A stretch of DNA of 33,652 nt from a virus. Shown here piece after piece: positions 27,862 through 33,541 of the stretch. The position numbers and the translations under genes are program-made. A model generated the notes under the pieces. That model was not told the DNA's origin. It saw nothing but the letters and a program-made list of their open reading frames with translations, and did no database searches. The stretch spans positions 1 to 33,652 of IMG/VR virus record IMGVR_UViG_3300045988_086956; one strand, written 5' to 3'. Each line of letters starts with the position of its first letter. Positions within the stretch are counted from its first letter, which is position 1.

Positions 27862-28230
27862 TTATATGTGAGCCTGATTGCCGTCAGGCTTTTTTTCTTT
27901 GCCCCAATATTCTTTTAAATTGACCGACATCACAGCAGCAAGATTTTTCTGTTCTGTCAAAATCTGTCTTTGATATGGTGCTAGTCCAGCTTGTCGCTCC
28001 TCCTCCGTCTTCGGTAGATAATAGCCACTAGGATGAGCTTTTTTAGCTACGATTGGCTGCCTAAAGGTCACTCGCAAGCTCTCAATCACTTCTTTTAGCT
28101 TTCGCTTTGAAAGACCTGTGCTTATTCTCAATTCGCTGGCTTGAATTGGTAAATCAAAGCTAGCACCGTTTTTGATAGCGTTTAAAACTTTGATTTCAAT
28201 TTCTGTCATATCTCTGATGTAATTCATCAC
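27862..28230 (-). CDS. Hypothetical early protein (winged-helix-like)
   Basis: 122-aa ORF overlapping the stop of the cro-like gene. Confidence 0.55.
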   Translation of the reverse strand: MMNYIRDMTEIEIKVLNAIKNGASFDLPIQASELRISTGLSKRKLKEVIESLRVTFRQPIVAKKAHPSGYYLPKTEEERQAGLAPYQRQILTEQKNLAAVMSVNLKEYWGKEKKPDGNQAHI

Positions 28231-28439
28231 TCTTCCTCCAAATCTACCCAGCTATCGGAAATTCGCAGCACATCACAAACTCGATTTTTGAGTTTATCAC
28301 TGCCCTTCCCATACTTTAATAACTCTGAGATGGTTGGTTTTTTGACTCCACAAGCTCGTGCTAAATGGGTTTGCGTCATGTTCTCTTCATTCAGCTTGTC
28401 CTTGACAAGTTGAATCCATTTTTTATGTTGTTGACTCAT
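28227..28439 (-). CDS. Cro-like XRE-family HTH protein
   Basis: MTQTHLARACGVKKPTISELLKYGKG is a classic HTH_3 segment. 70 aa. Confidence 0.7.
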   Translation of the reverse strand: MSQQHKKWIQLVKDKLNEENMTQTHLARACGVKKPTISELLKYGKGSDKLKNRVCDVLRISDSWVDLEEE

Positions 28440-28457: not shown

Positions 28458-28466
28458 TGGTATAAT
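28458..28466 (+). promoter_or_regulatory. Extended -10 promoter TGGTATAAT for the 227-aa gene
   Basis: Read directly. A GGAG RBS lies 8 nt before the ATG at 28494. Confidence 0.5.
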
Positions 28467-28493: not shown

Positions 28494-29177
28494 ATGAAAC
28501 TTAATGTACTTATTGAGTTTAGAGATGCCCGAACAACCATTACAATTGATACTCCTTCAAAATGCCCCCACTGTGGCAGAACCATGTCCCCTCAACACGT
28601 TGGACAAAGTACAAGCTCTGAAAGTACAAGTGCCTCAGAAGAAGGAAGATTTTCCGTTATTTTTCGATGTTCTTTTGAAAACTGCTTAAAATATTTTGTA
28701 ATAGAATACATCCACGATAATTATGAAATAGCAACGATGGTAGACTATTCATACCGTCCACCTATCAAGGTAAAACTCCCTGAAAATATAGAGAAGGTTT
28801 CTCCCGTTTTTGTTGAAATCTATTCTCAAGCAACGGTTGCAGAAAGAGAGGTATTAGATCAAATAGCAGGCGTCGGCTATCGCAAAGCAGCCGAATTCCT
28901 CATAAAGGACTACGCAATTTCCAAAAATCCATCTGACGAAGAACACATCAAATCAATTATGCTTGGAAAAGTAATCGCTGACTACTTGAATGATTTTCCA
29001 AAAATTCAAGCTTTAGCAAAATCCGTCGCTTGGATTGGAAATGATGAAACTCATTATGTCCGCAGACATGACGATAAAGATATCCGAGATTTAAAGAAGT
29101 TCATTCTCTCAGCGGCTCAATTTATTGCTGCTGATTACGATGCGGACGAAGCCTTGGCTTTCACTTCTTCTGATTGA
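28494..29177 (+). CDS. Zn-ribbon plus DUF4145-like (HEPN-related) protein, candidate prophage defence gene
   Basis: CPHC...CSFENC four-Cys ribbon. C-terminal half has YRKAAEFLIKDY...VAWIGNDETHYVRRHD. Own promoter. Opposite strand to the surrounding early genes. Confidence 0.6.
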   Translation: MKLNVLIEFRDARTTITIDTPSKCPHCGRTMSPQHVGQSTSSESTSASEEGRFSVIFRCSFENCLKYFVIEYIHDNYEIATMVDYSYRPPIKVKLPENIEKVSPVFVEIYSQATVAEREVLDQIAGVGYRKAAEFLIKDYAISKNPSDEEHIKSIMLGKVIADYLNDFPKIQALAKSVAWIGNDETHYVRRHDDKDIRDLKKFILSAAQFIAADYDADEALAFTSSD

Positions 29178-29269
29178 GAAATCTTAGCATCCAACTCATC
29201 CACCTTTTCAGCAATATATGTCACGGTCCTCAATATTTCATTGAGGGCTGTTCTTTCTAGTTCATTCAT
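29135..29269 (-). CDS. 44-aa helical small ORF (not in the track)
   Basis: MNELERTALNEILRTVTYIAEKVDELDAKISQSEEVKAKASSAS. SD AAGGTGGGTG. Overlaps the 3-prime end of the 227-aa gene by 43 nt. Confidence 0.4.
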   Translation of the reverse strand: MNELERTALNEILRTVTYIAEKVDELDAKISQSEEVKAKASSAS

Positions 29270-29309
29270 ATTTTCACCCACCTTTCCAATTCTTTCCCCT
29301 TTCTATTTT

Positions 29310-29318
29310 TGTTATAAT
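29310..29318 (+). promoter_or_regulatory. Extended -10 promoter TGTTATAAT for the 176-aa gene
   Basis: Read directly. AAAGGAG RBS at 29334-29340. Confidence 0.5.
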
Positions 29319-29348
29319 TGACTTATTATTACTAAAGGAGATAGTTTT

Positions 29349-29879
29349 ATGCCTATTATCACTAATGAAAATGTCCAAATCTGGACGCTCTATGCGACAG
29401 TTGTTATTGCAATCGTTGGTTTTATTTTCAACACAATATCCCTCTGGCAAACAAAGAAAGCAACCGAGGATATAGCAAAACCATATATCAATGTTTACGT
29501 TGATGCTTACGCTGTCAAATCACAACAACGAGTTTATGCATTCAAAAACTTTGGGCATACGCCAGCGTACATCAAAGATATTAAAATTGACGGTAAATTA
29601 GATAAGTATAATAGCAAACATAACTTCCGATCACTAATTGGTAACATGATTGCTCCGGGTCAGAAGTTAACATCATCTATACATCCAGACTATAAAGGCA
29701 GTATTACATTAAAAATCACCTATACTGATAGCAAGAGACGTCTATATACTGATAGCTTTAAACTCAATGCAGGAATAGCATCTGATATGCTCTATACTGT
29801 CAATGAATCAAATAAAAGTGATAATCCTGCAAGTGCTATCCGTCAATCGACAATGGCACTGTTACGTGACCTACGTTAA
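29349..29879 (+). CDS. N-terminally anchored membrane protein, Sie-like superinfection exclusion candidate
   Basis: TM segment WTLYATVVIAIVGFIFNTISLW followed by a beta-rich domain. Own promoter and RBS. Confidence 0.6.
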   Translation: MPIITNENVQIWTLYATVVIAIVGFIFNTISLWQTKKATEDIAKPYINVYVDAYAVKSQQRVYAFKNFGHTPAYIKDIKIDGKLDKYNSKHNFRSLIGNMIAPGQKLTSSIHPDYKGSITLKITYTDSKRRLYTDSFKLNAGIASDMLYTVNESNKSDNPASAIRQSTMALLRDLR

Positions 29880-30019
29880 ACAATTCTGTAAGCTTCGTTT
29901 ACTTGTATTTCAACTTTAATTATTTCCTTGTCTATTGTATTGGCAAGGATATTATTTTTCATATCAATAGCATCATCAATATTGTTAGCAAAAATATGAT
30001 AAGATACTTTAGCTTCCAT
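29876..30019 (-). CDS. 47-aa small ORF, first ORF downstream of the leftward switch promoter (not in the track)
   Basis: MEAKVSYHIFANNIDDAIDMKNNILANTIDKEIIKVEIQVNEAYRIV. SD GGAGGTGAGGGAG. Its stop overlaps the stop of the 176-aa gene. Confidence 0.45.
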   Translation of the reverse strand: MEAKVSYHIFANNIDDAIDMKNNILANTIDKEIIKVEIQVNEAYRIV

Positions 30020-30067
30020 CTCCCTCACCTCCTTTTTAAAAAATTAACTAAAAAGTTAGCGAACTAC

Positions 30068-30096
30068 TTGACAAATTCTAAAACTAGTTTTAGAAT
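30068..30096 (+). promoter_or_regulatory. Rightward promoter TTGACA-17-TAGAAT with an embedded perfect 20-bp palindromic operator (30076-30095)
   Basis: TTGACAAATTCTAAAACTAGTTTTAGAAT. The palindrome is TTCTAAAACTAGTTTTAGAA. Confidence 0.6.
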
Positions 30097-30217
30097 AAGA
30101 ACATAAAGAAAAGACTTACTAAAATGTAAGGTCGACCTATAAAAACGACGCCAATCAATTTTTTAAGGCTTTATTTTTTAGTTGTCTTGTTCGCTAACTC
30201 TTTAGCTTACGATATAT

Positions 30218-30246
30218 ATTTTAAAACTAGTTTTAGAATTTGTCAA
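30218..30246 (-). promoter_or_regulatory. Leftward promoter TTGACA-17-TAAAAT with an embedded near-palindromic operator (30219-30238)
   Basis: Its reverse complement is 28/29 identical to 30068-30096. Confidence 0.6.
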
Positions 30247-30251
30247 TAGTT

Positions 30252-30270
30252 TTTTAAACTAATTTTAAAA
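30252..30270. promoter_or_regulatory. Degenerate third operator-like site
   Basis: TTTTAAACTAATTTTAAAA resembles the operator with a 1-nt deletion. Confidence 0.35.
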
Positions 30271-30306
30271 TATTTTTTCGTATTGCTTAGAAAGGTTGAT
30301 AAATCA

Positions 30307-30654
30307 ATGTTCTTAGCATTCGACAGAATAAAAGAATTAGCTGATAAACAAGGGATATCTTTAAATATTTTAGAAGAAAGACTTGGATATAGCACAAATT
30401 ATCTTTACAGTTTAAAAAAAGGGAATCCTAAATCTGATAGATTGCAAGAGATTGCTGACTATTTCAGTGTATCTACTGATTATCTTTTAGGTAGGACGGA
30501 TAATCCAGCGATTGCTGGAGGAGGAAGTGAACCGGATGATATCGATAAAATCATAGACCGTGCTATGTTCTTCGATGGAAAGCCTCTAACCGATGATGAC
30601 CGTCGAGCCCTCCGCGGAATAATCTCAGGGTATATGAATAGCAAAGGAGATTGA
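30307..30654 (+). CDS. XRE-family phage repressor (CI/ImmR-like)
   Basis: HTH segment ISLNILEERLGYSTNYLYSLKKGN. The ATG at 30307, preceded by an AAAGG RBS, is preferred to the TTG at 30283. Confidence 0.8.
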   Translation: MFLAFDRIKELADKQGISLNILEERLGYSTNYLYSLKKGNPKSDRLQEIADYFSVSTDYLLGRTDNPAIAGGGSEPDDIDKIIDRAMFFDGKPLTDDDRRALRGIISGYMNSKGD

Positions 30655-30655
30655 G

Positions 30656-31771
30656 ATGTCTCATAAAAATCAAATTGAAATCTATCAATTTAACAGTCGG
30701 GCGAAATATTGGCTAGTTAGAGCAGATGGCGGAAAATATTACGATGATTTTAAATACAATCACTTCATCTCTATTCATCACAACCAAGTTACGCTTGCAG
30801 ATTTGCAGACAACTGACCTACTCCTCACAACAGAAAAAACTATAGAGCACTATAAGCAACAAATAGCGAGAGTGTATCAAGACAAAAGTCTATCAAAGCA
30901 CCAAATTACATTTACTGCTAAACGACTCTATAGATTTATAGAAGATATGAATGTAGGAGATTACGTCGTAGTTCCATCGTTTAAGTCGAATTATTTTTTA
31001 ATCGGACAAATTACAAGTGATGTATATGAAAAAGATATGCCAGACGGACAAGTGACCCTAAATCACGGATATGAACAATCTGAAGATATTAAACGTCGAA
31101 ATGTCAGATGGATCAATGAAGTCCCTCGTTGGAAAGTAAACTCGAAATTTCTATACAGTACACTGACAGTTCATCACACTATCTTTAATATCACAGATTT
31201 ATCAAAATACATCAATGGTCTCATATCTCCGCTTTACTTCAAAGATGGAAAATTACACCTTCAGTTGAGAGTTAACACCAAGGAACCTATCACATCAAGT
31301 ATGTGGAAAAATCTTTATTCTATCATCGATGAGTATAAAAACCCTGAAATTGATGAGGAAATAATTGCTACATCTAATGTTGAGAGTCCAGGTGAAATAA
31401 CCCTACAATCCATAAGTCAATTCATATCGGACAATCATTGGATGCTGAACTCAGGCTTAATAGGACTAGTACTTCTGTTTGGAGATATTGATTTCAAAGG
31501 TATTAAAGTAAAAGGACTTTTTCCTTATTTACAACAAAGAAAAACAGCCAGATTGGAAGAACGCAAACTGACTGTAGAAGTTGAAACGATGGAAAAAGAT
31601 GCTGCCCTGAAAGATATACAGCGAGAAGTAGAAATAGAAAAAACTCATAAAGAATTAGAATTACTAAGAAATGTAAGGGCTTTTGAAATAACCGTCGACT
31701 CTCCTAATGTCTCTTACGAAAACGTACCCCAAACGCAAATGGGTTCCGATGAGAATCAGGGTGAGGGATGA
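30656..31771 (+). CDS. 371-aa protein of unknown function (soluble N-domain, hydrophobic segment, charged coiled-coil tail), candidate abortive-infection/defence effector
   Basis: The ATG lies 2 nt after the repressor stop and has an AAAGGAG RBS. No motif could be assigned. Confidence 0.7.
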   Translation: MSHKNQIEIYQFNSRAKYWLVRADGGKYYDDFKYNHFISIHHNQVTLADLQTTDLLLTTEKTIEHYKQQIARVYQDKSLSKHQITFTAKRLYRFIEDMNVGDYVVVPSFKSNYFLIGQITSDVYEKDMPDGQVTLNHGYEQSEDIKRRNVRWINEVPRWKVNSKFLYSTLTVHHTIFNITDLSKYINGLISPLYFKDGKLHLQLRVNTKEPITSSMWKNLYSIIDEYKNPEIDEEIIATSNVESPGEITLQSISQFISDNHWMLNSGLIGLVLLFGDIDFKGIKVKGLFPYLQQRKTARLEERKLTVEVETMEKDAALKDIQREVEIEKTHKELELLRNVRAFEITVDSPNVSYENVPQTQMGSDENQGEG

Positions 31772-31955: not shown

Positions 31956-31973
31956 GGAATTTTGCGAGAAAAT

Positions 31974-32357
31974 ATGACAGAAAAAGAATTATTGGATCTC
32001 CATAAAGTTACTTTGCGCGAGTTTACCAGTCTACAATGGTCACGGAACGGCTTCTATGACGATATAAATCGAATCGTCTACATCAATGCCGATTTAAGCT
32101 CAGATGAAAGGCGAAAAGTCCTTTTTCATGAACTCGGTCATTTAGACCACTACCGTAGCCTATATCAAAATGCTCCTTTACTATGTGAGAACGAAGCGAA
32201 TCGTTACATGATTCAAAATCTGGTAGCCGAAGAGATAGCAGAATATGGAGTCGAAAGTTTCAATAGCATCCGATTTATGGAGCGCTATCAACTAAAAACA
32301 TCAACTGATGAAGTTATGATTCAAGACGAATTTTATAAACAAGTTAGCAATATGTAA
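31974..32357 (+). CDS. ImmA/IrrE-family HEXXH metallopeptidase (anti-repressor protease)
   Basis: HELGH plus a downstream ENEANRYM motif. 127 aa counted from the ATG at 31974. Confidence 0.75.
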   Translation: MTEKELLDLHKVTLREFTSLQWSRNGFYDDINRIVYINADLSSDERRKVLFHELGHLDHYRSLYQNAPLLCENEANRYMIQNLVAEEIAEYGVESFNSIRFMERYQLKTSTDEVMIQDEFYKQVSNM

Positions 32358-32473
32358 AAAATCCCCACACTCGCCATCGCCAAATTTTGAGTGTGAGGAT
32401 ATCCTGTATAGTAAACGGCATTAAATGGCCAGTTTTACTATACCCATTTTATCAAAAAAGTGAGGTAAAAACA

Positions 32474-33541
32474 ATGGCATACTTCAGGAAAAGAGAAAAC
32501 GGTTGGGAATATCGAATCTCTTATAAAGACAAAGACGGCAAATACAAGCAGAAATCAAAAAGTGGATTCAAGACAAAGAAACTAGCTCAAGCTGCAGCCA
32601 GAGAGATAGAGGATAATCTGTCCGAAAATATCCTGACAGACAAAGATGTCACGCTCTATGATTTTGTCAAAACGTGGTCCGATGTTTACAAGCGACCACA
32701 CGTCAAGGATAAGACATGGGAGACTTATACCAAAAACCTCAAACATATCAAGACCTATTTTGGAGATTTGAAAGTAAAGGATATTACTCCCCTTTATTAT
32801 CAAAAGCGACTCAATGAATTTGGCGAAAAGTACGCCCAAGAAACTCTTGAGAAATTCCACTATCAAATAAAGGGCGCTTTGAAAGTGGCCGTCAGAGAGC
32901 AAGTGATCAGCTACAATTTTGCTGAAGATGCCAAAGTCAGATCTCAGATAGAAACCAGGTCAGAAGATAATGATTTTTTAGAAGAGAGTGAGTATAAGGC
33001 TCTAATTTCGTCCACACGCTCGAATATTCAATACGTGTCCTATTTTACCCTCTATCTCCTTTCGGTCACTGGTATGCGCTTTTCTGAGGCTCTGGGGCTT
33101 ACCTGGGACGATATAGACCTCAAACAAGGAATCATTGACATCAACAAGGGATTTGATTACTCAAAGACTCAAGATTTTGGAGATTTGAAAAACGAAAGCT
33201 CAAAAAGAAAAATCCCAATCGATAAGATCACGATTGAGACTTTGAAAACTTATAAAAAGAAATACTGGCAAGCAAATATAAAGAATCGAGTCTGTTTTGG
33301 TGTTTCAAATTCGGCCTGTAATAAACTTATCAAGAAACTTGTAGGTAGGCCTGTCAGAAACCACAGTCTAAGGCATACTTACGCATCTTACCTGATATTC
33401 AAAGGGATAGACATTGTGACCATATCAAAATTACTAGGCCACGAAAGCCCAGATATAACCCTAAAAGTCTACTCGCACCAGATGGAAGCTTTAGCAGATA
33501 AAAACTTCGAGCAAATCAAAGAAATATTCCTAACGGCTTAA
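32474..33541 (+). CDS. int: Tyrosine integrase with N-terminal arm-binding domain
   Basis: MAYFRKRENGWEYRISYKDKDGK N-terminus. Catalytic R (GMRFSEA), HxxR (HSLRHTY), H and Y (LGHES...LKVYSH). The ATG at 32474 follows GTGAGG. Confidence 0.92.
   Translation: MAYFRKRENGWEYRISYKDKDGKYKQKSKSGFKTKKLAQAAAREIEDNLSENILTDKDVTLYDFVKTWSDVYKRPHVKDKTWETYTKNLKHIKTYFGDLKVKDITPLYYQKRLNEFGEKYAQETLEKFHYQIKGALKVAVREQVISYNFAEDAKVRSQIETRSEDNDFLEESEYKALISSTRSNIQYVSYFTLYLLSVTGMRFSEALGLTWDDIDLKQGIIDINKGFDYSKTQDFGDLKNESSKRKIPIDKITIETLKTYKKKYWQANIKNRVCFGVSNSACNKLIKKLVGRPVRNHSLRHTYASYLIFKGIDIVTISKLLGHESPDITLKVYSHQMEALADKNFEQIKEIFLTA

Follow-up and report, generated by a model that had tools for sequence, protein, structure and literature searches.

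A probable convergent-promoter lysis–lysogeny switch in a Streptococcus temperate phage and its relatives

Face-to-face genetic switches are already known from phages P2 and 186. The lytic and lysogenic promoters of 186 (pR and pL) and of P2 (Pe and Pc) face each other and give transcripts with overlapping 5′ ends (PMC5001618, PMC3675496). Because the immunity repressor of these phages targets the lytic promoter, repression there can free the lysogenic promoter from interference. Here we describe a similar layout in a 33,652-nucleotide (nt) stretch of viral DNA, positions 1–33,652 of IMG/VR record IMGVR_UViG_3300045988_086956 (hereafter the window), which holds the lysogeny and early region of a temperate Streptococcus phage in flipped orientation. 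A 287-nt gap between an open reading frame (ORF) of 47 amino acids (aa) and the repressor gene holds the switch. It is probably the lysis–lysogeny switch of an ImmR/ImmA-type streptococcal temperate phage, built from two convergent promoters. Sequence and comparison with relatives both predict converging promoters with overlapping transcript 5′ ends, and the comparison points to three class-specific operators and a 5′ stem on the lytic strand as well. The best reading is a 186/P2-like convergent layout in an unrelated ImmR/ImmA-type family of Gram-positive phages.

An earlier note on this DNA, made from the letters alone, had likened the locus to the 186/P2 switch. The layout is borne out by comparison with relatives. 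In 186, pL is weak and not directly controlled by an operator, whereas the two facing promoters described here are close to consensus, nearly identical to one another and each contain an operator. The start sites of 186 lie 62 bp apart, versus an overlap of ∼109 nt here. Unlike 186 and P2, the window has a 115-aa XRE repressor with an ImmA-like protease, and the hosts are Gram-positive; the likeness is one of layout, and no homology is claimed. We know of no counterpart to the long-range 5′ stem of the lytic transcript described below.

Among Gram-positive systems, the immR and xis promoters of ICEBs1 are divergent, whereas those of the window converge. What ICEBs1 shares with the window is the pairing of an XRE repressor and an ImmA-type protease for induction (PMC12637031). 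The window carries such a module, an XRE repressor plus a COG2856 metalloprotease: the repressor is a small XRE helix-turn-helix (HTH) protein that lacks an S24 peptidase domain, and the same operon encodes an M78/IrrE-like protease. The TP-J34/Sfi21 switches (Crh, Rir, Coh) are streptococcal and also pair an XRE repressor with a metalloprotease partner, and three intergenic operators are cited for TP-J34 (Koberg 2015, as cited in PMC12637031). By annotation and sequence, however, TP-J34 (HE861935) has back-to-back divergent promoters, a 168-bp spacer and no transcript overlap, and the divergent layout of the TP-J34/Sfi21/TP901-1 type is not what the window has. The earlier note had set the locus apart from the usual divergent switch of streptococcal phages. 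That holds with respect to TP-J34, but the layout is not peculiar to this phage; it is standard in a large streptococcal family (112 GenBank records). The prgQ/prgX switch of Enterococcus faecalis pCF10 is likewise Gram-positive, with convergent promoters and a long 5′ overlap, and is cited as becoming bistable through interference and antisense pairing (Chatterjee 2011, as cited in PMC5001618). It differs in being a plasmid conjugation switch with peptide pheromones, a 223-nt overlap and an attenuator terminator; none that is convincing is seen in the overlap here. The cI–cro region of phage MM1 (NC_003050) is homologous: TTGACT-17-TAAAAT faces TTGACA-17-TAAAAT, a third site and an ImmA gene are present, and the repressor leader is the same. 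MM1 differs in its operator class and its backbone sequence.

Two facing promoters and their operators

The elements of the switch, in window coordinates, are as follows.

30068–30096, plus strand: P_left module; -35 TTGACA at 30068–73, 17-bp spacer, -10 TAGAAT at 30091–96, predicted start ∼30103
30218–30246, minus strand: P_right module; -35 TTGACA at 30246–41, 17-bp spacer, -10 TAAAAT at 30223–18, predicted start ∼30211
30075–30096, no strand: operator OL, a 22-bp palindrome without mismatches (ATTCTAAAACTAGTTTTAGAAT), occupying the spacer and -10 of P_left
30218–30239, no strand: operator OR, the same palindrome with one mismatch, inside P_right
30250–30272, no strand: operator O3, a degenerate third copy, 77–78% identical to OL and OR
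30103–30211, no strand: region predicted to be transcribed both ways, ∼109 nt
30189–30207, minus strand: 5′ arm of the RNA stem, nt 5–23 of the predicted P_right RNA
30046–30064, minus strand: 3′ arm of the RNA stem, nt 148–166 of the predicted P_right RNA, beyond P_left

P_left points rightward, to the repressor operon, and P_right leftward, to the early (lytic) genes, so the modules face each other. They lie in the arms of an inverted repeat (30068–30097 and 30217–30246; 30 nt, 97% complementary), and each arm matches the sigma-70 consensus TTGACA-17-TATAAT at 11 of 12 positions, one per strand and pointing inward. These are the two best sigma-70 matches of the region. Moreover, the pattern TTGACW-N17-TANAAT occurs at exactly these two sites in the whole window, where shuffling predicts 0.09 sites and none of 100 shuffles gave two or more. 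The outer edges span 179 bp (30068–30246), and the predicted starts imply ∼109 nt of transcript overlap. The near-identical facing modules put forward in the earlier note are thus confirmed, and convergence, with a predicted overlap close to the 108 nt it gave, is supported.

The intergenic region recurs in 112 GenBank records of streptococcal phages, and in 71 of these the match covers at least 80% of its length. The phages come from hosts such as S. pneumoniae, mitis, oralis, pyogenes, dysgalactiae, agalactiae, iniae, equi, suis, anginosus, parasanguinis and thermophilus, and all DNA relatives found were streptococcal. Using two motifs outside the promoters, one in the centre and one at the repressor ribosome-binding site, we gathered 190-odd loci that reduced to 160 distinct regions, many of them closely related, so that counts overstate the number of independent events. 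A facing TTGAC(A/T)-N17-TAnAAT pair, one per strand, is present in 156 of the 160 (97.5%), with an outer-edge span of 164–188 bp (mode 180); the four exceptions show single-base differences or a 1-bp change in spacer length. The relatives include MM1, SM1, SpSL1 and IPP/Javan phages, and on direct reading the layout is present in MM1, SpSL1, SM1, phi3396 and the virulent S. thermophilus phage CHPC577. The window has all four features of the MM1/SM1/SpSL1-type switch, namely facing modules, a triple operator, long-range complementarity and the conserved repressor leader with its ribosome-binding site (CTTAGAAAGGTTGATnnnnCAATG), followed by an XRE repressor. In CHPC577 (L192, NC_070901; 1410–1640) both facing modules are present, the left one with a weaker -35, TTGAAA. 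No repressor coding sequence is annotated at this switch, and a repressor-like frame appears truncated after the start of the HTH.

Long inverted repeats around a short segment resemble invertible promoter switches, and the 30-bp repeats could in principle be recombination sites that invert the 119-bp segment they flank, or else the termini of a small mobile element, rather than promoters. Yet none of the 160 distinct relatives has the centre in the opposite orientation, the repeats vary with repressor specificity as operators do, and no invertase gene adjoins the region. We have rejected this reading, which has next to no chance of being correct.

The spacers carry the operators. The earlier note's palindrome, filling the spacer and -10 of each module, proved perfect over 22 bp in the left copy, and its degenerate third operator was recovered at 30250–30272, conserved and class-specific in relatives. 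No other site in the window comes within three mismatches of the palindrome. The centre of O3 is ∼32–33 bp (three helical turns) away from that of OR, and the site overlaps an A/T-rich stretch that precedes the P_right -35. Among the 156 relatives with facing promoters, the spacer/operator sequences fall into ∼20 classes; left and right spacers are 77% identical within one phage versus 47% between phages. Each class carries its own N-terminal HTH sequence in the repressor, and OL, OR, O3 and this HTH shift class jointly. O3 matches its own class at 15.8 of 21 positions, compared with 13.2 of 21 for other classes, and lies 30–35 bp from OR in 143 of 156 sequences (most commonly 33 bp). In the window, too, a class-specific operator is found in the left module, in the right module and at a third site ∼33 bp beyond the right one. 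With one representative for each of 20 classes, hexamer positions hold 2.0 bits and are invariant, whereas spacer positions hold 0.1–1.4 bits, the hexamer values being fixed in part by the regular expression that located the modules. Judged from these alignments, the pattern is the hallmark of promoters that stay fixed while the operator cassette within them is exchanged.

One relative (L060, IMGVR_UViG_3300045988_080737) is a hybrid, either natural or from assembly. Its left module has another class's operator (TTGACATTTTTAAATAAATGATTTAAAAT), its right module, O3 and repressor are of the window's class, and the junction lies in the conserved centre. As for DNA looping between OL and OR, their centres are 127–151 bp apart without helical phasing, and we make no claim for it.

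Transcription of the repressor and early operons

We examined whether gene-proximal promoters are conserved in the same 156 relatives. Rightward, between P_right and the repressor ATG, the best site matched no more than 7 of 12 positions in 96 of them, and the maximum in any was 9. Leftward, beside the first lytic gene, the best site matched no more than 8 of 12 in 144. Since proximal sites are unconserved in either direction, the two facing modules are the only conserved promoters, and P_left is, as far as sequence comparison reaches, the sole conserved promoter for the repressor operon. The earlier note, too, had found no convincing divergent promoter beside either gene. Five phages of one backbone (L107, L109, L124, L154 and L170) have an extra strong leftward promoter, for example TTGACAACTGAATAGCGATATGGTAATAT, ∼45–75 nt left of the left module. 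It reads TTGACA-17-TAATAT, stands back to back with the left module and has no class-specific operator in its spacer.

Published data on relatives also bear on the start of the repressor transcript. RNA-seq of lysogens gave a 5′ untranslated region of 140 bp for cI of SpSL1 (Furi et al., PMC6755750). This phage is built in the same way, with only 31 nt between the annotated cI start and the outer edge of the right module; a 140-nt leader therefore means that the cI transcript starts left of the lytic promoter and runs through it. This supports a distal start and the layout as a whole; it does not pinpoint P_left. Promoter conservation, the position of the stem and the SpSL1 leader together support the earlier note's assignment of the left module to the repressor and the right one to the early genes. 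For MM1, which has this architecture, a review reports binding by CI and remarks that it 'represses elongation' of both transcripts (PMC7600539), and this fits roadblocking.

Several points weigh against the convergent reading, beyond the two limits already given for the hexamer values and the counts. The window has a weak proximal site, TCAATA-17-TAAAAT (30243–30271, 8/12), that could contribute to repressor transcription. The same 2020 review (PMC7600539) calls the MM1 promoters 'divergently oriented'. In SpSL1, P_left predicts 178 nt to the annotated cI start, versus the 140 nt reported. All start positions used here are predictions from sequence. Lastly, interference, roadblocking, OR–O3 cooperativity and a function for the stem are all things we infer.

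The first two of these points favor a rival in which the true promoters are divergent and gene-proximal, a weak one at O3 for the repressor and another near OL for the early genes, with the hexamers acting as extended operator or architectural sites. So does the MM1 GenBank record (NC_003050), which annotates a putative TTGTCA-N19-TAAAAT beside cI plus several others; the left module figures there only among six 'putative' promoters. But proximal candidates are unconserved in both directions, and an operator-only role leaves the fixed hexamers and 17-bp spacing unexplained amid ∼20 operator changes that track the repressor. In addition, the SpSL1 leader excludes a start 0–30 nt from the gene (PMC6755750), and the conserved 5′ stem begins at the predicted P_right +1. 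We regard divergent promoters as improbable.

The doubly transcribed centre (30103–30211) is more conserved across operator/immunity classes than the operators are, and comes in about four unrelated 'backbone' versions. A CGCCAA hexamer is frequent in it, though not invariant. An Rfam search of 29800–30400 with E up to 10 returned chance-level matches only. No convincing terminator was seen in the overlap, where the hairpins ahead of U-runs are weak (-4 to -6 kcal/mol) and lack conservation between backbones. A general terminator scan was empty there too, and we dropped a small RNA or attenuator as a candidate. In window-like backbones, and solely there, an inner inverted repeat (30108–30125 and 30174–30192) gives a long 5′ hairpin in the rightward RNA, -20 to -26 kcal/mol on the plus strand versus -15 to -20 on the minus strand, that buries the T-run at 30169–80. 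Confined to that backbone, it was rejected as a general feature.

These folds bear on a second rival, in which the sole product of the left module is a short antisense RNA, terminated in the T-rich tract at 30169–30180, that acts on the lytic leader, the repressor being transcribed from elsewhere. Other phages make comparable antisense RNAs (P22 sar, lambda oop), and the T-run (TTTATTTTTT) is conserved and follows a weak hairpin at ∼30147–30167. The weakness and poor conservation of the hairpins before U-runs speak against it, however, as does the minimum-free-energy fold, which pairs the T-run inside a longer stem. There is also no other conserved promoter for the repressor, and the SpSL1 cI mRNA has a long leader (PMC6755750). 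An antisense-only role for the left module is accordingly very doubtful.

A long-range stem in the predicted lytic transcript

When RNA from the minus strand starting at 30211 is folded, a 19-bp long-range stem forms between its 5′ end and a segment beyond P_left. Some 13 nt separate the end of the 3′ arm from the downstream GGAGG that precedes the first leftward ORF. As DNA, the same repeat measures 17 nt with 94% complementarity (30048–30064 and 30189–30205). The earlier note had reported an 11-bp inverted repeat bracketing the left module; the repeat is real, conserved and longer than stated, but is better read as an RNA stem of the lytic transcript. An equivalent stem is present in IPP19, MM1, SpSL1, L107 and L081 with unrelated arm sequences. 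In all six lineages, the window's included, it starts at nt 1–7 of the predicted P_right transcript (0–6 nt from the start).

Pairing is strand-specific. Over 140 distinct arm pairs, the mean duplex energy is -24.1 kcal/mol for the minus strand, compared with -20.0 for the plus strand and -8.8 for shuffled arms, and the minus-strand duplex is the more stable in 134 of the 140. In an alignment of 32 sequences, pairing holds in 91% of cells, both partners vary at 6 of the 19 pairs, and several positions are G-U on the minus strand. The covariation score of the stem is 0.159, versus 0.099 for shuffles (0 of 500 reached the stem's score) and 0.018–0.048 for slid partners. The left arm lies outside the rightward transcript, and no long-range stem was found in the rightward repressor leader (-9.5 versus -8.3 kcal/mol for shuffles). 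This strand-specific 5′ stem marks a predicted leftward start near 30211.

Alternatively, the repeat at 30046–64 and 30189–207 may consist of DNA sites for a conserved protein, the candidate being a 70-aa HTH protein (phrog_1468) encoded further left in the window. This protein occupies the Cro position, as first lytic gene, in IPP19, MM1 and SpSL1. The IPP19 version (69 aa, in a phage of the window's operator class) is 87% identical to the product of 28227–28439. Versions at least 85% identical accompany eight different operator classes, and we have therefore rejected this protein as an operator-specific Cro. That very constancy across classes means that it might recognize conserved backbone sequence; each arm contains a quasi-palindrome, GTTnGCnAAC, and HTH variants with a different recognition-helix region accompany a different arm sequence, GTTAGTAAA. 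On the other hand, the same arm sequence accompanies HTH variants with a mutual identity of only 45%, and G-U pairs favor minus-strand pairing, which a double-stranded DNA site would not produce. Across four backbones the arms are unrelated, yet complementarity and the 5′-end position are kept. DNA sites in place of an RNA stem are thus unlikely, and the two readings are not mutually exclusive.

Gene content, proposed mechanism and significance

The closest record to the window is Javan73 of S. anginosus, at 94% identity over 55% of an 11.6-kb query. The genes and signals around the switch are listed here.

30307–30654, plus strand: repressor gene, 115 aa, XRE/HTH_3 type (Pfam HTH_3, E 2e-6; phrog_8)
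31962–32357, plus strand: ImmA/IrrE-like metalloprotease (Peptidase_M78, E 2.7e-8; phrog_87, E 2e-30)
32387–33541, plus strand: integrase, in the rightward operon
29876–30019, minus strand: first ORF of the leftward operon, 47 aa, phrog_24874, function unknown
28227–28439, minus strand: HTH protein, 70 aa, phrog_1468
29925–29963, plus strand: terminator-like hairpin with U-rich tail, -10.8 kcal/mol, 3′ of a 176-aa gene

The repressor has a Shine–Dalgarno sequence, GAAAGG, at 30290–95, and its ATG is kept across alignments of relatives. A transcript from P_left would have a predicted leader of ∼204 nt. The metalloprotease is likely the repressor's induction partner. In most relatives the two genes are adjacent, unlike in the window, where a 371-aa ORF (30656–31771, plus strand; no Pfam match, phrog_10226 of unknown function) lies between them. 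On the left, the 47-aa ORF has a GGAGG Shine–Dalgarno at 30032–30028, and replication genes including DnaB follow on the minus strand beyond the 70-aa HTH gene. Two genes on the opposite (plus) strand, encoding 227 aa (weak DUF4145 match, phrog_1305) and 176 aa (phrog_9607), are inserted between the switch and the HTH gene (28494–29879). They have their own extended -10 (TGGTATAAT, at 28458–28466) and the terminator-like hairpin at 29925–29963. From these signals they look like lysogen-expressed genes, both of which the lytic transcript would have to cross in antisense. The hairpin, at 29925–49, would stop transcription of the 176-aa gene from reading into the switch.

We propose the following mechanism. 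The P_left transcript, with its ∼204-nt leader, would pass over the opposing promoter and O3 into the repressor–ImmA–integrase operon, and the P_right transcript, with a leader of ∼190 nt, over P_left into the early genes. The repressor would block initiation at both promoters through the operators between -35 and -10, and, when bound to the opposite operator, would act as a roadblock to the elongation of each transcript. With OR and O3 three turns apart, and O3 lying over the A/T-rich upstream region of P_right, the lytic promoter should be silenced first: cooperative binding to OR and O3 would shut off P_right at less repressor than OL needs to shut P_left. At low repressor, repression of P_right would relieve head-on interference on P_left, an indirect form of self-activation; at high repressor, OL and the OR/O3 roadblock would give negative autoregulation. 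Induction would presumably proceed through inactivation of the repressor by the ImmA-like protease (PMC12637031), after which both promoters would fire into each other. The stem would form solely in lytic transcripts, once RNA polymerase has passed P_left and OL. It may stabilize or license the full-length lytic mRNA, protect its 5′ end or serve as a processing site, and the complementary repressor leader may compete for its 5′ arm. That interference would be 'setting the decision', as the earlier note suggested, is an analogy with 186 and P2.

A broader proposal, which we put forward tentatively and consider possible though not the likelier outcome, concerns the whole family of pneumococcal, S. 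mitis/oralis, S. pyogenes/dysgalactiae, S. agalactiae, S. suis and S. thermophilus phages. These phages may decide by a symmetric convergent switch in which collision, operator roadblocks and antisense pairing of the leaders do the work of a classical operator-specific Cro. Lytic mRNAs that made it past the repressor's promoter would be marked by a 'proof-of-passage' 5′ stem, and operator/repressor specificity would be swapped as a cassette within a fixed scaffold.

Our literature search, whose coverage did not extend to the primary papers on MM1, returned no description of a convergent switch in Gram-positive phages, and the S. pyogenes RNase III targetome makes no mention of this region. Obregon et al. 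2003 (FEMS Microbiol Lett 222:193) reportedly studied the MM1 cI–cro region; if that study mapped the MM1 starts, part of this is already known. The layout in more than 150 related phages appears not to have been described so far.

Prophages with this switch are common in major pathogens of humans and animals, among them pneumococcus and group A, B, C and G streptococci, and in dairy strains; when induced, they influence virulence, competence and gene transfer. Should the convergent layout hold, the textbook picture of divergent cI and cro fails for these phages, and immunity groups would be readable from the spacers of two fixed promoters. Regulation would then rest on transcriptional interference, roadblocking and RNA structure, all testable with simple reporters. 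The ∼20 operator–repressor pairs in one scaffold would offer a natural series for the evolution of specificity and for building orthogonal switches.

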